A model generated the notes under the pieces. The model ran no database searches. It worked only from the letters and a program-made list of their open reading frames with translations, and was not told the DNA's origin. Positions 2,186 through 27,591 of a stretch of 27,591 nt of DNA are shown one piece after another (within the stretch, counting starts at the first letter, position 1; each line of letters starts with the position of its first letter). Both the position numbers and the translations under genes were made by a program. The DNA is taken from the IMG/VR virus record IMGVR_UViG_2645727640_000023; one strand, written 5' to 3'. The DNA comes from a virus (Duplodnaviria; Heunggongvirae; Uroviricota; Caudoviricetes).

Positions 2186-2623
2186 TTAAACCCCGTTAAA
2201 TGCTGCTTTAAACTCATAAGGAATAACGGAACCATCCGGTAATGTCAGTGCAATGTAGAGGTATAACCAGCCCTGATGTAACTGTTCCGCTCTGACGTTA
2301 ATCGCACTTACCCGGCCCGCTGTTTTCAGCCATTCCAGCGCCTCTTCGGCATACCCTCTGGCGCGTTCCAGCGTATCCGGTGTGGCTTTTTCACGTGATA
2401 ACAGCCACAACCGCGAACCGATGGGGCGGTCGCGGTAACTGTCACCCCACCATCCACGGCGATCATCTGAACCATCCGGCAGCGTGTCAGAATCCAGCGC
2501 GCGCCGGTCTGTAAACAGGGAGATTGTCACATCGGTTGTCAGGCTGTCGTCGGTCAGCATATCAATGCCATCCTGTGCAATATCGCCGCGTCCGTTCGTC
2601 CAGATAATGGCTAAATCGGTCAT
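2186..2623 (-). CDS. V: Baseplate protein (Mu gp46-like, lysozyme-fold gpW/gp25 family)
   Basis: ORF track 145 aa; tightly packed between the spike and J-like genes (stop/start adjacent at 2185/2186). Confidence 0.75.
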   Translation of the reverse strand: MTDLAIIWTNGRGDIAQDGIDMLTDDSLTTDVTISLFTDRRALDSDTLPDGSDDRRGWWGDSYRDRPIGSRLWLLSREKATPDTLERARGYAEEALEWLKTAGRVSAINVRAEQLHQGWLYLYIALTLPDGSVIPYEFKAAFNGV

Positions 2624-3213
2624 TGCATTGGCCCCGTGGTTCCGCCGCTGTCGCCACGGTGGATATGCTTATCCGTCGATTTGCCATTGATGATGGCATC
2701 CGGGGCAGTAATATTGCTGTCGAACTGGCTTTTACCTTTAACGCCCAGACCTTTCTGGATCTCAACGTCGCCGGTAAACGTGGTTCTGGGTGTGTCAACG
2801 GTCATTCTTTCATCAGCGTAAACCTCAACCGTTTTACAGGTAATGATGCAGCGTCCGTCCTTTGTCAGCCTGATACGATGCCCCTCGTGGTGGTAAATGC
2901 CTGCATCACCCGGTTCAAGATTTGTCGGGCGGTAGCGGCGGTCTTCCACCACAACGGCAATCCCCTGATCACGTTGTGCGCCTACACAGGCAATCAGCGC
3001 CTCTGCTCCCGGCAGGGGAACGCTGAAATGCCCGTAATTTTGCAGGCGCTCCACTTCATCAGATTCCTCATCATCCAGCAGGCCGACCTGCAGGTTCTGA
3101 ACCTTTCGCCCGTCGTTAATCACGTTAACAACAGCGCGCGCAAGCATCAGGCGCACACGACGCATCAGCGGCGTCAGCAGGCGGTTCAGGGCGGAATCAT
3201 TTACTCTTTCCAC
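2620..3213 (-). CDS. Q: Baseplate central spike protein (Mu gp45-like)
   Basis: ORF track 197 aa ([32 protein letters not shown]...); typical spike length; overlaps neighbours by 4 and 13 nt. Confidence 0.8.
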   Translation of the reverse strand: MERVNDSALNRLLTPLMRRVRLMLARAVVNVINDGRKVQNLQVGLLDDEESDEVERLQNYGHFSVPLPGAEALIACVGAQRDQGIAVVVEDRRYRPTNLEPGDAGIYHHEGHRIRLTKDGRCIITCKTVEVYADERMTVDTPRTTFTGDVEIQKGLGVKGKSQFDSNITAPDAIINGKSTDKHIHRGDSGGTTGPMQ

Positions 3214-4340
3214 GGCGGCGTTTTCTCCGGGTGTCTGCGATAATAATCTTCAACCAGCGCATCAATACCGCCGTTACTGTCGCCGCCTTTCCTGTTTTTA
3301 CGGTCGCTTTCAACCGGCACCAGAAAGCCTTCGCGTGGTGCAAGGCTGACGCGGGTTTTCAGCCCGTCCTGGTCATTCAGTATCAGGGTGACTTTGCTGA
3401 CCAGTAATTCCGTGGTTTTGATGGCATATTTCGAGGCATCAATAGTGACCAGCAGGTTCGGCATCCAGAGTTGCCCGTCCTTGCGAGTCCATCCGTCAAT
3501 TTCAGCCTCAAAGGTGATGGATTTTGCCAGTCTGCGGCGTTGCTCACGCAGGGCGCGGGCCTGTGCATCCTTCGCCGTAATTTTGCTGTCAGCAATGATG
3601 ATCATCGGTCTGTAACGGGTTACATCACTGTCAGTGGCGGTCCCTTTCCGGGAGACGATACTTTTCGCATCAATATCATCACCCTCAGCACCGTTTGCGC
3701 GGGCATACCCCTTGACGGTGTATTCGCTGAACCGGTCGCGGAAGTCTTCCTCAAAATCCAGTGTCAGCAGATTTTCTCCGAGAACCAGCTCATCAGTGGC
3801 TGTGCTGGCAGCCCGGCTGAATACCAGCTCTCCTGCGGCATTGCTGGTCATCAGTACACCGCGTGCGCGGGAGGCACGCACCAGCGCCTCATAAACGGTT
3901 TCTGAATGGTCCAGCGTGAAGCCGGGAAAAGCTGCCGAACTTTCCTTATCGGAAAGCTCCCAGCGAACGGTAACGCCATAAGGAGCGCACAGGTCACGCG
4001 CAATCTGCTCCAGTGTGCGGTTTTTCCACTGTCCGCCACTGTAAACGGCAGCACAGTCAATCAGGTCAGCCGTTTTGTCACGTCCGGCGATAGTGATTTT
4101 CATGCTGTCAGCGGTCATCTGGCGTCGCCGCGAATCGATATAACCGGTGCAGACAATCTGCCCGTCGATTTCCAGCGTGAACGCCTTCCCCGGTGCCAGC
4201 CCGGATAAATCTGTACCCGGTGGCACATTCACCCCCAGCTCAAAATATCCGGCTACGGATTCAATGGAGCGGGTGACAGAGACTGACGTCCAGCCGGTAA
4301 AAAGCCTGCCATCCGTTCGCAGCGTGACGGTATTACTCAT
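3201..4340 (-). CDS. P: Baseplate hub / late-control gpD-like tail protein (Mu gp44-like)
   Basis: ORF track 379 aa ([36 protein letters not shown]...); immediately downstream of N, as in Mu. Confidence 0.85.
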
Positions 4341-5824: not shown

Positions 5825-7897
5825 TTACCAGCCTGTAATGTAGTTATCGCCCGCGTAAATATTCAGCCCCATACCGTCCTCGGTGACGCGGGAACTGGTC
5901 AGACGTAACCCCTCGGCAAGTTCGACGCGCAGCGAGGCTTCCGCATTCACTTTTTGTTCCTGCGGTTCCTTATCCGGGGCCGTCCATTTCTGATACAGGT
6001 CGGTTACAAAACCGCCCAGATACTCCCCGGCGACACTGCCCAGCGTGGCACCGGCAACCGTACCCAGCGGTCCGGCAAGGCTGCCAACGGCACCGCCGAG
6101 CCATGCACCGGCTGTACTGCCAATTGCGCCTGCTTTTTCATGGGTTGACGCCTGCTCATCCATCAGGACGGGGGCAAGCTGGAGTGCCCCCATTACCGGG
6201 CCACCCAGACGTGACAACGCACGACCGGCACCTTTCCCCATCCAGCCCAGCGCCCCGGCACCTTTTGTCACAACCCGACCGATCGCACTGCCTGCAAGTT
6301 TGTTTCCGATACCGGAAAACCACCCGCCAACAGCACGCCCGGCATCAGCCAGCTTTCCGACCGTTCCCGTAACCAGTTGCCCGGCAGCACTGCCTGCAAG
6401 CCTGCTCAGAAGACCGGATTTACCGGGTAAAGGTAATGGTGCAGGCCGTGCTGTTACCGGTACGCCGGGTGGCGGTAATGCCAGTACAGGGCGTGGTGCA
6501 GGTAATGCCAGCGGCTGTGGCCCGGACAGCAATAACGGCTGGCGGGGTAACAGCGGGGCCATTCTTCCGCCGCTCCGTCCGCGACGACCGCCGCCACTCC
6601 CGTAGCCACCAAATCCACGGGGCCAGTTGATGACAAACACACGCTGAATGCCGATACCCTGCAACAGCGTCTCAGACGTCATGGCATCCGGGACCGGCAG
6701 ACCTGCCTGCCCACGTTTGCGGTTTCGCATCCAGCGCCACATACGACGCCCGGTTTTAAACGGATAACTGGCAACCTGCCATGAGGGTTTTGCCACGGCC
6801 CAGCCTGCTCTCAGGGCTTTATTGGCAAGCCAGACAGACACCAGAACAGCAGCCAGTTTTTTCAGGCTGACAATATTCTGGTCAACCCATGCCAGCGCAT
6901 CTTTACCCGGTTTCAGCCAGCGCCATAATTCCTGCGCCGCGATTTTTACCGTTCTGAACGTGGTCAGAAATTTCTGACCAATGTTTTCTGCCAGTGCGTC
7001 AAGTTCCCCGGATTTATCCGCCATGTCGTGCCAGTTAAGCACCCGGCGCATCTCGTTCTTGATTTCTTCAAAGGGGCCGCTGTTTGCCACCTTTATGCGA
7101 AATTCAAGCAGGTTAGCTTCCATCTGGGCGAACATCCCGTCCCAGGAGTTCATCGCACTGGCCTGTGCACCTTTTGACTGTTCTGACAGCGTTCTGAATA
7201 CCGTCAGAATGGATTTCAGACCCAGCTTGCCTTTTTCACCTTGTTTGCGGATATCCTTAACGTCTTTACCCAGTGCATCCGCCAGCGTCTGGTAAACGTT
7301 AATACCGTAACCGGTCAGCAGGTTGGCATCCGCCGCCGTGATTTGCTGGCGGGCAAACATCTGTTTCAGTTGCAGTGAGGCACCCTGTGCAGTGGGTAAA
7401 TCCCAGCCGTGCATGGCCCCCTGATCCTGCAACATGGTGATGAACTGTTTCGTCTGTTCATCCGTCATGCCGAAGCCTTTCGACGAACGGATCTCATCCA
7501 GAACACCACTCAGCCCCCACGTGGTGTCCTTCGCGTTCTGCTTTGCCCAGGCCATCATGGCCTGCGCTCTGACCTTATCGCCGTGATACAGCAAGTTCAT
7601 GGCGATAATTTGCTGCTCACGCTGGGCGGCTGCACCAATAAACAGTTTATTGGCGGTGTAACCCACACCAGCGATACCCAGCGCCCCGGCTGACAGCATT
7701 CGGAATGTACGGGTTGACAGTGAACCCATTCTGTCAATGGCACCAGAAACGCGCACAACCTCCATACGCAGGGCACGAAGGGAACTTTGTCCGCTACGGG
7801 ACAGGGCGTTTATCTGGTTCGAATACTGGCGGGAACGCCGGGAAAGATTGCCATTAAGATCAATAATGACAGACGCCTTTAAGCGTTTCCCGGTCAT
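5825..7897 (-). CDS. Y: Tail tape measure protein (Mu gp42-like)
   Basis: ORF track 690 aa; long helical N-terminal half, then a Pro-rich segment (residues ~447-492) and Gly-rich GxxxG-type repeats (~493-630); AGGAAA Shine-Dalgarno 8 nt upstream of ATG 7897. Confidence 0.85.
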
Positions 7898-22857: not shown

Positions 22858-23247
22858 TTACAGAAGTGAGGGCTGGTACTGGCGGTATTTCAGCCGTCGC
22901 ATCCGGCGAATGGCCTTGTAAACCGTATTGAAAGTGACACCATAACGGGTGGTCAGTTCGCTGACGTTGCGACCGTTAAAATCATTCCAGATACGCAAAT
23001 CCCGAATCAGCGAGTCCAGAACCTGACCGCGTGGAATGTAGACCTGACCGCCGCCCAGATGCTTACAGATAGCCACAACAATCTCCAGTGAATGGGCAGG
23101 ATCAACACCCAGCCGGGACAATTCCCCGCGCAGTAAATCGTTCAGCTCCGCCAGCAGTGCCGGAAAGCGTGACGTATCCTCTGCGGGATTGTCAAGATGT
23201 GCCAGGATGGTGTCATCCTGCAAATCACCAAATAAATCTTCCGTCAT
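22858..23247 (-). CDS. mor: Middle operon regulator Mor (Mor/C family transcription activator)
   Basis: ORF track 129 aa (MTEDLFGDLQDDTILAHLDNPAEDTSRF...GGGQVYIPRGQVLDSLIRDLRIWNDFNGRNVSELTTRYGV...); paralogous to the C ORF; ATGA junction with gemA; strong terminator palindrome directly downstream. Confidence 0.9.
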   Translation of the reverse strand: MTEDLFGDLQDDTILAHLDNPAEDTSRFPALLAELNDLLRGELSRLGVDPAHSLEIVVAICKHLGGGQVYIPRGQVLDSLIRDLRIWNDFNGRNVSELTTRYGVTFNTVYKAIRRMRRLKYRQYQPSLL

Positions 23248-23795
23248 TGTGCCATCCTCCGTGTCTTTCTGGCATGGGCATAAGCCGCCGTCATGGCATC
23301 ATAGCCGCGCAGTTCACGCCCGGACGGACTGACTGGCAACGGAAGCCCGTGACGGGAAAAGGCTTCACGAATACAGCGGATATGCCACTGCTTGAGAGTT
23401 TCGAGAACAATCAACAGGGTGTCGCCATGACACCACGCCAGCGTGGAAACACCCTGTCCGCCATTACGTTTCGCCGTCAGGCGCTGAACATATTTATCCA
23501 GCGCCACATCACCGCCATCGGTAATAAAACCGTCTTCTGCCATCTGCTGCCAGACTTTGTATACCTTCTCGCGGGGCGTGACATGCCCCTTAAAGCGGCG
23601 ACGTGGATGTTTATTCAGCTTCTTAAAGCCGCGTTCTTTCATGGCATCGAGCACCTGTTCCAGTTGCGTAACCGTCAGCTCGCGGCAACTGATTTTGCCC
23701 GTTTTCTGCATCAGAAAAGCTCGGTAAGTGTCGTCGTCGAGTTGTAGCTCCCGACGGGCGACATGGATTAATTTAATCAGGGATGTGCGATTCAT
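23244..23795 (-). CDS. gemA: GemA-like early protein (Mu gp16 family)
   Basis: ORF track 183 aa (MNRTSLIKLIHVARRELQLDDDTYRAFLMQKTGKISCRELT...); immediately upstream of mor as in Mu. Confidence 0.85.
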   Translation of the reverse strand: MNRTSLIKLIHVARRELQLDDDTYRAFLMQKTGKISCRELTVTQLEQVLDAMKERGFKKLNKHPRRRFKGHVTPREKVYKVWQQMAEDGFITDGGDVALDKYVQRLTAKRNGGQGVSTLAWCHGDTLLIVLETLKQWHIRCIREAFSRHGLPLPVSPSGRELRGYDAMTAAYAHARKTRRMAQ

Positions 23796-23864: not shown

Positions 23865-24131
23865 ATGGAAAATAATGTACAACCTTATGATGTTGCAGGT
23901 TATGCGATTGCATCAGCACTGGTGCGCCTTCTGGTGAAGAAGGCGATCATCACCGCAGAAGAGGGCCAGGCCATTTTCAGCTCTTCAGCAGAGATTTTAA
24001 AAGATGCGCCTGCAATAAGAACAAGCCGCCGCGAAAACATGCAACTGTCAAAGATCATGGAAGACATTATCAGTTCGTTAGACCCAGATGCTGACGGATC
24101 TCAAAAGCCTCAAACACATGAGCGTCAGTAA
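23865..24131 (+). CDS. Opposite-strand hypothetical protein (88 aa)
   Basis: ORF track 88 aa; GAGAGGA 5 nt upstream of ATG 23865; G-initial codon bias typical of real genes; occupies an otherwise empty 274-nt minus-strand gap; 3' end overlaps the 3' end of the convergent 100-aa gene by 62 nt. Confidence 0.45.
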   Translation: MENNVQPYDVAGYAIASALVRLLVKKAIITAEEGQAIFSSSAEILKDAPAIRTSRRENMQLSKIMEDIISSLDPDADGSQKPQTHERQ

Positions 24132-24372
24132 CAATATCCTGGTCTGATAACCCCAGCCTGCGGCGGATGTACTCCTCGCGGGCTGTTTCATTTTGCAGTG
24201 CCACTACTGTTTCCAGACGATTCATTTCGCGGTTGATAATGTCACGGACTTCTCTGGCGGTGAGATTATGCTTAATACCATATTCAACGATAGCGCGAAC
24301 ACGTTCCAGCATCCCTTTTTCAGCCATGACGTTATCAATATTAAGGGGAGTAAATTTATCTTCATTGTTCAT
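24070..24372 (-). CDS. Hypothetical early protein (100 aa)
   Basis: ORF track; ATGA junction with the upstream gene at 24369-24372; predicted helical, no motif I recognise. Confidence 0.65.
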   Translation of the reverse strand: MNNEDKFTPLNIDNVMAEKGMLERVRAIVEYGIKHNLTAREVRDIINREMNRLETVVALQNETAREEYIRRRLGLSDQDIVTDAHVFEAFEIRQHLGLTN

Positions 24373-24692
24373 TTTGCGGCCCTCAGAATAAATTCAGGAT
24401 AAAATTTCAGACTCATTTGCCGTAACACATCCAGTGCAGCAACGGCTGCTGATTTATCGTTGCCATCAGCAATAGCGCGGAGATTTTCAATAATCCAGTG
24501 AGGACTCAGTGACTCAGCAATAATGCCAAACCGGTACGCCATGACCTCATCAATAGCTTTTTCATGAGACGTCTCATATACAAAATTCACAAAGTCATGC
24601 ACTTCTTTTTTCGGCAAACCACCGGCAATCAGCAGGGCGGCAAGCTCTTCTGATTTTGAAAATACACCATTATTCATATCACTCACCTTCAC
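24369..24692 (-). CDS. Hypothetical early protein (107 aa)
   Basis: ORF track; overlaps the upstream zinc-ribbon gene by 14 nt. Confidence 0.65.
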   Translation of the reverse strand: MKVSDMNNGVFSKSEELAALLIAGGLPKKEVHDFVNFVYETSHEKAIDEVMAYRFGIIAESLSPHWIIENLRAIADGNDKSAAVAALDVLRQMSLKFYPEFILRAAK

Positions 24693-24861
24693 AATTCATG
24701 CACGCCGTGTCATCGCCCATATCACAGTGGTTGCATTTCTGCCCGCCACAATGAGGGCACTCTTTCAGATATTCAGGGGATTCATTACCGCAGGTCGGGC
24801 ATTCCTGTTTCACCGTGGTAAATTTCCCCAGCCACGAATACGATGTTTCACTGTTTTCCAT
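24679..24861 (-). CDS. Eight-cysteine zinc-ribbon protein (60 aa)
   Basis: ORF track: four CxxC pairs (CPTCG...CPHCGGQKCNHC...CMNCEGE); overlaps both neighbours by 14 nt. Confidence 0.65.
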   Translation of the reverse strand: MENSETSYSWLGKFTTVKQECPTCGNESPEYLKECPHCGGQKCNHCDMGDDTACMNCEGE

Positions 24862-25378
24862 TAGTTACCTCCGCCTGTTTTTGCGCCCGGATAAATTCGT
24901 CAGAAAGGATTTCAGTCATGCGGCCTTGCGCGGGTGTCATCCCCGTCATGACGTAAATCACATCACCAACACGGAACCACTGGAGCGGCCCGAATATTGT
25001 TGCGCTGAAATCCAGTCCCAGTGCGGGTAAAAGAGCGTCTGTGCGGGCGTAAGTGACCGGAATATTCTCCTGCCATATTTTCGCCAGCTCTCTTGCCTGC
25101 CCCCTGAGATGAGCAGGTATCCGCGAAGTTCTGGGCCTGCAACTGTTACCTGATGCGGGCCGTTGTACGGTCCACAGCTCCCGCGAGAAGGGGCGCTCAT
25201 TCCCCGGAAAATTCACACCATGAAAATGACGCCCACCAATACCTGTACTGAATACTGACCGGCAACCACAGTCCAGAACCTTATCAAGATGGCGGGCTTC
25301 TTCGCGTAGTTTCAGGCAGTCCGCCATAAACTGGTCCCATGCCAGCAGTGCTGTGGGATTTGACGTTTTAAAAAACAT
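24848..25378 (-). CDS. Hypothetical early protein (about 176 aa)
   Basis: ORF track 189 aa from 25417; I prefer ATG 25378 (MFFKTSNPTALLAWDQF...), which forms an ATGA junction with the upstream gene's stop. Confidence 0.65.
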   Translation of the reverse strand: MFFKTSNPTALLAWDQFMADCLKLREEARHLDKVLDCGCRSVFSTGIGGRHFHGVNFPGNERPFSRELWTVQRPASGNSCRPRTSRIPAHLRGQARELAKIWQENIPVTYARTDALLPALGLDFSATIFGPLQWFRVGDVIYVMTGMTPAQGRMTEILSDEFIRAQKQAEVTNGKQ

Positions 25379-25908
25379 CACGCCACCTCCTGCACCGCTG
25401 CGGGAGCCGGAGAACAATCAAGAATGAGATAACGCAGTACATGGTCGGTGATATTCCAGGCGCTGGAACTGCAAATAAAACGCCCCAGCCGGATATCGAT
25501 ATAAGCCATCACAAAACGGGGCATTCCCTGTTCGCACATTCTGTTGTCCACTTCTGCAACGATGTGAACGGATTCACAGGTCAGCACGCCTGTTGCAAAT
25601 TCTTTTGCCAGTGCCGGAATGGCATTGCCTTCCAGCCAGGGCAATGGGCGGCGGAAGGAACACCACGCGGCATCATCAACAGCAGACTGCTCAGTTGCGT
25701 TTCGTCTTACAGGCTGCTCTGTACGGGGACGCGGTACGTCGTAAAAACCATTAAGTTCAGTCAGCATTCCGGCATCAACCGCATCACGCAGGAAGTACAC
25801 CATTGCGGAGGATGGCATCTGCATTTTTTCAGCCAGAACCCCGCAGGTCAGGCGTCCGTAAGCCCGTAATAATGTGCTGACACCATTCAGAATTTTTGCA
25901 TCAACCAT
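25378..25908 (-). CDS. Hypothetical early protein with N-terminal winged-helix-like segment (176 aa)
   Basis: ORF track; GAGGAA Shine-Dalgarno upstream of ATG 25908; first gene after gam. Confidence 0.65.
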   Translation of the reverse strand: MVDAKILNGVSTLLRAYGRLTCGVLAEKMQMPSSAMVYFLRDAVDAGMLTELNGFYDVPRPRTEQPVRRNATEQSAVDDAAWCSFRRPLPWLEGNAIPALAKEFATGVLTCESVHIVAEVDNRMCEQGMPRFVMAYIDIRLGRFICSSSAWNITDHVLRYLILDCSPAPAAVQEVA

Positions 25909-26006
25909 GTTTTATTCCTCAGTAATCTGTTTCAGGCGCGAGCAATCCCCTGACGCATCGCGCCATAATTAAAAGAATGTGAATTAATTAAATATTAATG
26001 GTGGTA

Positions 26007-26531
26007 TTAAATACCTGCTTCCTGTTCAAACGGAATAATGGAAAAATCTTCAATTCCCGATTTAACCGTAATTCCGGCAACACCTGCGACGGCTTTTGGT
26101 TCCAGTAAAATCGCCTCCTTGTTGATTTCCTGCTTCGTGCGAATAAAGCGTTGCAGGCCAAGACGCTCCAGCGTTTCCATTACGGCATCCACGCCGCGAA
26201 TACTCACTGATGGCGGGCGTTGACGCCATGACACATCGCCGGTGACAAGATTTGCCGTCTTCACTTTGCCGCCGTTCGTCAGTTCGTCGCGGTTCGCTTC
26301 ACACCATCCCTGAACGCCTTTTGAAAGGGTTTCAATATCGGTTTTAATCGGTGCAATCCGGGCCGCAAATTTCTCCGTAATTTCCGCGATGGCATCATTC
26401 ATTTCCGTTTCCAGACGTGATGCTTCGCGCTGTAAATCCCCGATGCGTTTAATATCGGTAATCACCGCATCGCGGTTTTGTGGCACATAAGCCGCTGCGG
26501 CACTTTTGATGCGTTTTGCTGGTTTAGCCAT
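26007..26531 (-). CDS. gam: Host-nuclease inhibitor Gam (DNA-end-binding, Ku-like)
   Basis: ORF track 174 aa (MAKPAKRIKSAAAAYVPQNRDAVITDIKRIGDLQREASRLETEMNDAIAEITEKF...), which I recognise as essentially the phage Mu Gam sequence. Confidence 0.92.
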   Translation of the reverse strand: MAKPAKRIKSAAAAYVPQNRDAVITDIKRIGDLQREASRLETEMNDAIAEITEKFAARIAPIKTDIETLSKGVQGWCEANRDELTNGGKVKTANLVTGDVSWRQRPPSVSIRGVDAVMETLERLGLQRFIRTKQEINKEAILLEPKAVAGVAGITVKSGIEDFSIIPFEQEAGI

Positions 26532-27491: not shown

Positions 27492-27539
27492 ATTCCGTCC
27501 TTTAATTCCAGATACTGTATTTTTGGTAATGACTCCAAC

Positions 27540-27591
27540 TTATTGATAGTGTTTTATGTTCAGATAATGCCCGATGACTTTGTCATGCAGC
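27540..27591 (-). CDS. 3' end (last 16 codons) of an early gene that begins beyond the window end
   Basis: Minus-strand frame open from the window edge to TAA at 27540-27542 (...LHDKVIGHYLNIKHYQ*); too short to name. Confidence 0.3.
   Translation of the reverse strand, partial: LHDKVIGHYLNIKHYQ

Follow-up and report, generated by a model that had tools for sequence, protein, structure and literature searches.

Homologues of Mu gp11 to gp14 and an SfMu-type gene lie in a hot spot of exchangeable early genes between gam and gemA

INTRODUCTION

Although Mu is a model phage, no function has so far been assigned to most of its semi-essential early genes. Classical genetics mapped an 'arm' (replication-enhancing) and a 'lig' (ligase-like) phenotype to the semi-essential region, with no ORFs assigned to either. 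The region comprises 14 ORFs, mostly without assignment, and it can be deleted, and its expression harms the host (PMC3325207; PMC3820752), whose viability is lowered (PMC3325207). In Mu lysogens, low-level transcription from the early promoter is reported to run across the semi-essential genes, and a host benefit was suggested by the authors of that work (PMC3820752).

The Mu region had also been picked as an accessory region by Silas et al., and the upstream gene Mup07 (gnarl2), which alters LPS and phage sensitivity, is the only one reported with a phenotype (bioRxiv 10.1101/2023.04.06.535777; PMC12373910). In the gnarl study, the benefit of gnarl2 is suggested to be superinfection exclusion. 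The screen covered 200 genes in 20 E. coli hosts against eight phages, namely T2-T7, P1, and lambda, a set that did not include Mu itself. Mup13, Mup14, and Mup15 were screened but do not feature as named or followed-up hits, and gp11 and gp12 are called 'big' in the notes of Silas et al. and are missing from their gene table. Here, we describe a locus that carries gp11 to gp14 together with an extra cassette; since this cassette is absent from Mu, it was not among the Mu genes screened.

RESULTS

Identity of the phage and setting of the locus

The window, i.e., the whole stretch of 27,591 nt that was analyzed (IMG/VR record IMGVR_UViG_2645727640_000023), is a Muvirus genome that reads on the minus strand and is 98-99% identical to Mu and D108. 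An earlier note, made from the sequence alone, had described five small ORFs downstream of gam in a Mu-type semi-essential early interval. All five were found as described on the minus strand, and their position between gam and gemA, together with orthologues in Mu, D108, and SfMu, bears out that placement. The interval that holds the five genes most likely represents the distal portion of the semi-essential early region in a transposable phage of Mu type. The gene order, all on the minus strand, runs from gam (26531..26007) through the five genes to gemA (23795..23244), and the features are as follows:

26007..26531, minus strand: gam, host-nuclease inhibitor, annotated in Mu and 99% identical to Mu Gam
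25909..26006, minus strand: gam-gp11 spacer, 98 nt, with a GC-rich hairpin (GGCGCGA...UCGCGCC) read from the sequence
25908..25378, minus strand: Mu gp11 homologue, 176 aa, Gp11_C family
25378..24848, minus strand: Mu gp12 homologue, 176 aa from ATG, basic (pI 9.3)
24861..24679, minus strand: Mu gp13 homologue, 60 aa, acidic (pI 4.5)
24369..24677, minus strand: extra cassette (fourth ORF), 102 aa from its most likely start, ATG 24677 (107 aa if from GTG 24692)
24372..24070, minus strand: Mu gp14 homologue, 100 aa, older name E15, phrog_6075
23865..24131, plus strand: convergent 88-aa ORF, RefSeq Mup15 (NP_050619), phrog_8747
23244..23795, minus strand: gemA, 97-100% identical to GemA of Mu and SfMu

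Alignment with Mu and D108 identified four of the genes as Mu gp11, gp12, gp13, and gp14. The extra, SfMu-type gene lies between gp13 and gp14; Mu and D108 lack this cassette, whereas SfMu has it. Protein identity of the five genes to the Mu, D108, and SfMu orthologues is 90-100%, the order between gam and gemA is conserved, and the Pfam families Gp11_C and Phage_Mu_Gp12 are common to both sides; the older names of the matching early genes are E10-E15. In other words, these genes are already catalogued in Mu as gp11-gp14 and are still uncharacterized, and the fifth is of the known SfMu gp14 type. The window is mosaic, with a D108-type gp11 (100%), a Mu/SfMu-type gp14, and the SfMu-type cassette. 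At least 80% of the exact five-gene set was found in 27 complete E. coli genomes.

The spacer hairpin has a predicted folding energy of -20.9 kcal/mol, which is not significant (z = -1.5). An Rfam scan returned no matches, a repeat search revealed nothing remarkable, and no sigma-70-like site was found when the interval was scanned for promoters. Terminator-like matches in the interval numbered 7, compared with 2.9 +/- 1.8 in shuffled sequences, an excess that is not decisive. A literature search by name (gp11-gp14, Mup11-14) yielded nothing relevant.

A hot spot of accessory genes between gam and gemA

Comparison of 64 related loci uncovered 24 arrangements of the gam-gemA interval, which draws on at least 20 gene families and varies in length from 1.2 to 5.3 kb. 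It is flanked upstream by the conserved gam and downstream by the conserved gemA (Pfam GemA is present in identical loci), and this constellation of conserved flanks with variable content between them is an accessory region in the sense of Silas et al. The interval is a hot spot of exchangeable accessory genes and is the kind of place where counter-defence or host-modulation genes occur. The suggestion of the earlier note that an anti-defence or host-modulation locus may lie here is partly favored to that extent, and the independent work of Silas et al., with its host-envelope phenotype for the neighbor gnarl2, came to a similar view of this Mu region.

The earlier note had also treated the five genes as one translationally coupled module, and in this respect the data disagree. 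The genes are present or absent independently of one another: gp12 occurs in 40 of the 64 loci, the extra ORF in 37, gp14 in 31, and gp13 in 29. The exact five-gene set is confined to 9 of them, yet it is the single most common arrangement. The gene for gp11 can also stand without any of the other four, be joined by just the extra cassette or just gp14, or share the interval with gp12 and unrelated genes, and PhiR68_1 carries two other genes in place of gp13 and gp14. Among the five genes, an association was seen only for gp13 with gp14 (25 loci have both and 31 have neither, against 2 with gp13 but not gp14 and 6 with gp14 but not gp13).

Most adjacent pairs in the interval are separated by -14 to +4 nt, whatever families they belong to. 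Such tight junctions are generic to the interval, and the coupling reflects operon packing rather than shared function. Of the overlaps listed earlier, that of 14 nt between gp12 and gp13 and the ATGA shared by the fourth ORF and gp14 are present; the gp11/gp12 junction is instead TGATG (a 1-nt overlap), and the fourth ORF probably has a later start than the GTG. Wherever a related locus has both gp11 and gp12, the two genes share a 1-nt overlap.

Coding status and database searches

Each of the five genes is preceded by its own Shine-Dalgarno sequence, and their dN/dS ratios against diverged homologues range from 0.12 to 0.36, which indicates real coding sequences under purifying selection. 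The third codon positions had been described as more AT-rich than those of the structural genes. This applies to the pooled values (GC3 of 0.485 for the five genes versus 0.585 for the structural genes), but the gap is driven mainly by the fourth ORF (0.37) and gp14 (0.455), and gp11, gp12, and gp13 (0.51-0.54) fall within the low end of the structural range.

Searches of Pfam, NCBIfam, PHROGs, and PADLOC with all five proteins and two overlapping candidate ORFs returned only families of unknown function or sub-threshold matches. Sequence and profile searches against the PDB gave nothing significant, and none of the proteins matched a PADLOC defence-system model at E <= 0.01. These searches agree with the earlier reading that no function can be assigned, as no family of known function was recovered.

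gp11

The gp11 protein consists of a winged-helix-like N-terminal domain (about residues 1-58), a variable linker (residues 62-85), and a Gp11_C domain (residues 90-167) that scores 134.9 bits against Pfam Gp11_C (PF25754; cut-off 27). It is 100% identical to its D108 counterpart and 90% identical to that of Mu. The winged-helix-like N-terminus noted earlier is modeled as such, in a structure of only moderate confidence (pLDDT 62); family HMMs of MarR/ArsR regulators do not match the N-terminus, and the dimerization helices that flank the winged helix in MarR are missing from the model. The rest of the protein also departs from MarR/ArsR, being a Mu-specific domain without a structural match among the matches listed. 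In Pfam and NCBIfam, no winged-helix family matched, and besides Gp11_C there was only a sub-threshold PCI match (E 0.17). With a pI of 6.0, the winged-helix-like domain is close to neutral, an uncommon property among DNA binders, and we infer that gp11 probably acts as an adaptor through this domain and not as a classical repressor.

gp12

The structure model of gp12 is confident (pLDDT 90.7) and shows one alpha/beta domain, for which no match was found in the PDB, i.e., the predicted fold has no solved relative. A mechanical ORF list extended it to 189 aa from an upstream TTG; every homologue starts with MFFKT, as does the 176-aa form. Identity to the Mu, D108, and SfMu orthologues is 97-98%, and homologues of gp12, as well as identical loci, carry the Pfam annotation Phage_Mu_Gp12 (PF26885). 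The family is a stand-alone one of about 200 sequence clusters from temperate phages of Gammaproteobacteria. A distant relative occupies the same position in a Klebsiella Mu-like prophage, between DUF3164 and GemA/Mor, and another member was found in a Pseudomonas prophage that is not Mu-like in appearance. SfMu gp12 appears to be frameshifted, and vB_YpM_3 lacks the gene.

gp13

The 60-aa protein carries eight cysteines in four CxxC pairs (CPTC, CPHC, CNHC, and CMNC), as the earlier note had read directly in the sequence, and it probably has two zinc sites, judging from these pairs. The conserved core spans about 46 aa, and short variants of 46-47 aa exist. The protein matches phrog_5584, is 95-98% identical to the Mu, D108, and SfMu orthologues, and has a dN/dS of 0.16.

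Pfam matches to zinc-ribbon, Lar, and DnaJ families were all below cut-off. We rejected assignment to Lar restriction alleviation proteins (PF14354, 11.8 versus 28.6 bits; TIGR03655, 14.9 versus 39.6 bits) and to the DnaJ central CXXCXGXG zinc domain (PF00684, 19.2 versus 32.7 bits); a G follows just two of its four CxxC pairs, and their spacing is not that of DnaJ. Lar proteins and DnaJ zinc centers are, like gp13, small and cysteine-rich, and zinc binding is a further, probable common feature, but the likeness comes from the cysteines alone, and the four CxxC pairs of gp13 are spaced differently.

Four IMG/VR loci have a 252-aa ORF with the gp13 domain (95% identical) at its C-terminal end, fused to another cassette family of 129 aa; a homologue search for fusions among 14 close relatives found 0. 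Klebsiella phage Kpn BU9 carries a gp13 homologue (49% identity) whose immediate downstream neighbors are an exonuclease and a gp2.5-like SSB. The gp13 protein is probably a small zinc-stabilized binding module that may also be able to serve as a C-terminal domain when joined to another cassette protein. It is conceivable, but less likely, that it is a portable zinc-ribbon targeting module working with gp14 or with the fusion-partner cassette protein.

The extra cassette

Three observations make ATG 24677 the most likely start of the fourth ORF: the alignment to the PHROG profile begins at residue 6, the 102-aa form is the one that gene callers report, and related loci have a +1 gap at the junction. 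From this start, the junction reads TGAtATG and is served by the Shine-Dalgarno sequence AAGGTGA. The protein matches phrog_1988 and is 98-99% identical to SfMu gp14 and its vB_YpM_5 counterpart; tblastn detected it only in SfMu, YpM phages, and one Mu-like insert. It appears helical by eye, its GC3 is the lowest of the five, and its dN/dS is 0.36. No match was found in Pfam, NCBIfam, PADLOC (at E <= 0.01), or the PDB; one weaker PADLOC hit was to candidate PDC-M42B (E 0.022).

gp14 and the convergent Mup15-like ORF

The gp14 protein is 99% identical to that of Mu and 100% identical to that of SfMu, and the D108 variant shares only 36% identity. Its dN/dS is 0.32, it belongs to no family of known function, and the index of the assembly collection lists the exact protein in 1810 blocks. 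A match to pesticin residues 120-185 in the PDB searches (E 0.03, domain E 0.076) was too weak and covered no functional domain, so it was discarded; the matched pesticin region also appears in phrog_38583.

The Mup15-like ORF and the 3' end of gp14 have 62 nt in common. The GenBank record of Mu instead annotates the minus-strand Mu_54 there (window 24067..23900). The Mup15-like ORF is preceded by a Shine-Dalgarno sequence (GAGAGGA) and, unlike Mu_54, shows the GC1>GC2 pattern expected of coding sequence, and it was picked by gene callers in six genomes. With just 7 variable sites to draw on, the selection and codon-position test at 23865-24131 favored neither strand.

DISCUSSION

We lean toward the reading that the five are early accessory genes that act independently in host takeover or counter-defence, which we consider reasonably probable. 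Between gam and gemA, the genes follow one another closely, head to tail, on the long early transcript, and they are exchanged independently. Each protein, made early after infection or induction, may act alone by binding a factor that belongs to the host or to a competing phage. By analogy with the neighbor Mup07 (gnarl2), the outcome would be host takeover or counter-defence. Several observations sit less easily with this reading: the screen named no hit among Mup13, Mup14, and Mup15, the gp11 model is only moderately confident, dN/dS values of 0.12-0.36 reflect ordinary constraint and not the fast diversification typical of many anti-defence genes, and the strong co-occurrence of gp13 and gp14 means that not every gene need act alone.

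That the five genes instead form one translationally coupled, multi-protein anti-defence or host-modulation machine is very improbable and is already largely refuted by the presence/absence data. A single operon with overlapping or abutting start and stop codons, the rank of the exact set as the most common arrangement and its recurrence (at least 80%) in complete E. coli genomes, the pairing of gp13 with gp14, and the invariable gp11/gp12 overlap would all suit such a machine. However, every gene occurs without the others, gp11 even with none of them; Mu and D108 are fully functional without the extra cassette; unrelated cassettes are joined by the same tight junctions; and SfMu gp12 is apparently frameshifted. 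It is unlikely, though to a lesser degree, that the proteins are auxiliary factors for phage DNA transactions that would boost replicative transposition or, with Gam and GemA, shield and process the ends of Mu DNA, and that would not act on host immunity. Their location on the same transcript between gam, whose product binds DNA ends, and gemA is in keeping with such a role, as are the 'arm' and 'lig' phenotypes, the distant gp12 relative between DUF3164 and GemA/Mor, and the Kpn BU9 gp13 homologue next to the exonuclease and SSB. Yet the genes can be dispensed with and are scattered unevenly over close relatives, all of which transpose; the gp12 family extends to a Pseudomonas prophage that does not look Mu-like; and the pI of the gp11 winged helix speaks against DNA binding.

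The low-level early transcription in Mu lysogens (PMC3820752) and the superinfection exclusion proposed for gnarl2 raise the question of whether the genes serve the lysogen, through prophage-expressed exclusion of superinfecting phages or another host benefit. The Mup15-like ORF, which runs opposite to the early transcript and would need its own promoter, might also fit this scenario. We regard it as improbable, as the genes are within the lytic early transcript, expression of the region cuts host viability, the interval lacks a sigma-70-like promoter, and no protein matched a PADLOC defence model.

Returning to five independent accessory genes, it is conceivable, though on balance doubtful, that at least one of gp11, gp12, and the extra cassette counteracts a defence of the host or takes over one of its processes through a novel mechanism. 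The first two are outside the gene table of the published screen, and the third is not a Mu gene. Among the three, gp12 stands out, with its confident fold without a solved relative and its roughly 200 clusters in the early regions of temperate phages. Our analysis narrows down where experimenters should look and does not reveal a new kind of system. The neighbor gnarl2 (Mu E6/Mup07) shares with the five genes the early operon and the flagged accessory region, and it likewise encodes a small protein without enzyme-like features, but there is no sequence similarity between them, and the demonstrated LPS and phage-sensitivity phenotype belongs to gnarl2 alone. In the window, the gnarl2 homologue is interrupted by IS1.

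Identity and coding status of the five genes

The window, a Muvirus genome read on the minus strand, is 98-99% identical over its first 25 kb to Mu, D108, and the Yersinia Mu-like phages. Over the 2.8 kb around the five genes, vB_YpM_5 and vB_YpM_6 are 95.7% identical over the full length, SfMu is 94.3% identical, and Mu is 95.3% identical over only 90% of the query. In the annotated Mu record, the corresponding site falls between gam (Mu_10) and gemA (Mu_16), an interval occupied by Mu_11, Mu_12, Mu_13, and Mu_14 (formerly E10-E15). The fourth ORF, termed here the extra ORF, has no Mu counterpart; it is annotated as gp14 in SfMu and is also carried by vB_YpM_5. The region is present in 89 of 5426 complete E. 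coli genomes, with at least 80% of it in 27 of these, where its genes are annotated as hypothetical proteins or "Mu-Gp12 family protein".

All five ORFs that the earlier note had reported at 24070-25908 (minus strand) were found at those positions; the gp11/gp12 junction, described as ATGA-type, is actually TGATG, a one-base overlap. The second ORF (gp12, 176 aa) starts at ATG 25378, as in all homologues. For the fourth ORF, the most likely start is ATG 24677 (102 aa), one base past the gp13 stop codon, since the PHROG profile, gene callers, and related loci concur on it. Each of the five genes is preceded by its own Shine-Dalgarno sequence and is under purifying selection (dN/dS 0.12-0.36). 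In addition, the four CxxC pairs ascribed to the 60-aa protein, gp13, are all present, and third positions are indeed more AT-rich than in the structural genes (pooled GC3 0.485 versus 0.585 in 18 structural genes), a gap driven by the fourth ORF (0.37) and gp14 (0.455).

Compared with Mu and D108, 24070-25908 is mosaic at the scale of single genes: gp11 is identical to that of D108 and 90% identical to that of Mu, gp14 is 99% identical to Mu and only 36% to D108, and both phages lack the extra cassette.

At the 3' end of gp14, public Mu annotations conflict:
23865-24131, plus strand: 88-aa ORF, Mup15 (NP_050619), the RefSeq call
24067-23900, minus strand: 55-aa ORF, Mu_54, the GenBank AF083977 call
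The plus-strand ORF is favoured by its Shine-Dalgarno sequence, its GC content by codon position, a match to a PHROG, and the choice of the gene callers. It converges on the early operon and shares 62 nt with the 3' end of gp14; the variable sites were too few for a selection test to discriminate between the two strands.

Gene content between gam and gemA

Our survey covered 80 IMG/VR loci with a gp11 relative, the window, and six phages taken as references. The counts rest on the 64 loci in which positions could be assigned to gam and gemA alike; gp11, as the search key, was set apart. The interval proved to span 1.2 to 5.3 kb, with 24 arrangements built from at least 20 gene families. Among these loci, 40 have gp12, 37 the extra ORF, 31 gp14, 30 a DUF5420-like gene, and 29 gp13. 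No other arrangement is as common as that of the window, yet it occurred in only 9 of the 64 loci, a pattern that does not fit the single coupled module proposed in the earlier note. Moreover, vB_YpM_3 lacks gp12, PhiR68_1 carries two unrelated genes in place of gp13 and gp14, and gp12 of SfMu has an apparent frameshift. Most neighbouring gene pairs in the interval, irrespective of family, are joined at -14 to +4 nt, and the overlaps are therefore an operon property rather than evidence of joint function. One clear link emerged, between gp13 and gp14 (both in 25 loci, gp13 alone in 2, gp14 alone in 6, neither in 31), which is only a lead because the loci are phylogenetically non-independent.

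The SfMu record (NC_027382) has an annotation gap at the expected gp12 site (2562-3077), where tblastn matches gp12 as two fragments (residues 1-19 and 21-176), a split that points to a frameshift, a pseudogene, or a sequencing error.

Protein families and outlying homologues

None of the five proteins matched a family of known function, in line with the initial reading, which could assign nothing beyond the CxxC pairs of the 60-aa protein and a winged-helix-like N-terminus in the first protein, and no Pfam family was found for gp13, the extra ORF, gp14, or the overlapping 88-aa ORF. An exhaustive profile search revealed 199 clusters (50% identity) in the gp12 family; the 150 clusters listed are short stand-alone proteins, about 155-216 aa when full-length. 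Members are known from Klebsiella, Pantoea, Citrobacter, and Pseudomonas. In a Klebsiella Mu-like prophage, the gp12 relative is flanked by DUF3164 and GemA/Mor, without gp11. A distant member lies at 7001-7573 of a Pseudomonas luteola NBRC 103146 prophage that is not Mu-like in appearance, with neighbours that include a ParB-type HTH-domain protein and a large ORF with an intein-type Hint domain, so that the family extends beyond transposable phages.

Matches of gp13 to Lar, DnaJ, and zinc-ribbon models were all under cut-off. Its zinc ribbon recurs, at 95% identity, as the C-terminal domain of a longer ORF in four surveyed loci:
about 4967-5725 in L016, and also in L017, L020, and L078: 252-aa gp13-fusion ORF
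In its middle part, this ORF shares 69% identity with a 129-aa cassette family that stands alone in other loci. The fusion looks recent and natural. Its probable counterpart is phrog_6418, a profile of 231 positions in which gp13 matches the C-terminal stretch 175-231.

A 50-aa gp13 homologue (49% identity) with all four CxxC pairs is encoded at 4031-4183 of the 60-kb non-Mu Klebsiella phage Kpn BU9 (OR145793), within the replication module, where it is immediately followed by genes for a predicted exonuclease and a gp2.5-like single-strand DNA-binding protein.

Possible roles of the five genes

The semi-essential region comprises 14 ORFs, few with an assigned function, and its deletion from replication-defective Mu returned host viability and lysogen recovery to 100% (Harshey laboratory, PMC3325207). 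Low-level transcription crosses the region in Mu lysogens (PMC3820752). In their supplementary notes, Silas et al. (bioRxiv 10.1101/2023.04.06.535777; PMC12373910) count the early genes of Mu as one accessory region ([quoted passage not shown]), and their 200-gene library includes Mup06, Mup07, Mup08, Mup13 (labelled "Double Zn finger"), Mup14, and Mup15; that screen covers neither gp11 nor gp12, nor the extra cassette. A phenotype is given only for Mup07 (gnarl2), which alters O-antigen and sensitises hosts to T5, and Mup13, Mup14, and Mup15 are absent from the hits named in either version. Our literature search found no paper assigning a function to gp11-gp14. Both the genes and the accessory-region idea already stand in the public record.

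We consider it reasonably probable that in this Mu-type phage the five are early accessory genes independent of one another, serving host takeover or counter-defence. This judgement covers the whole statement, and its bulk rests on what was observed directly, i.e., identity, coding status, domain content, and mosaic distribution. Early in infection, each protein would bind a target of the host or of a competitor, to the benefit of takeover or counter-defence, a role favoured by the hot-spot behaviour of the interval, by the region's toxicity, and by the precedent of gnarl2. The main rival, in which the proteins would assist Mu's own DNA transactions, draws on the placement between gam and gemA, the basic character of gp12, and the gp13 homologue beside an exonuclease and SSB in Kpn BU9, and we regard it as possible but distinctly less probable. 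A benefit to the lysogen is unlikely, more so than the DNA-transaction role. The original interpretation is supported in part: the semi-essential early setting fits, whereas the one-module part gives way to the arrangement data and the generic junctions, which leaves a single five-protein system very improbable.

Flanking sequence

The gam-gp11 spacer (98 nt, 25909-26006) holds a GC-rich hairpin, GGCGCGA...UCGCGCC, with a fold energy not significantly under that of shuffled sequences (z = -1.5). Some related loci instead have a spacer of 87-93 nt between the DUF5420-like gene and gp11.

At its right end (27525-27591), the window consists of terminal sequence of IS1 (98.6% identity with insAB regions of that element), which interrupts the Mu E6/Mup07 (gnarl2) homologue after about codon 8:
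27524-27285, minus strand: leftover 3' part of the gnarl2 homologue
Because it lies upstream of gam and the five genes within the same early operon, this IS1 may be polar on them.
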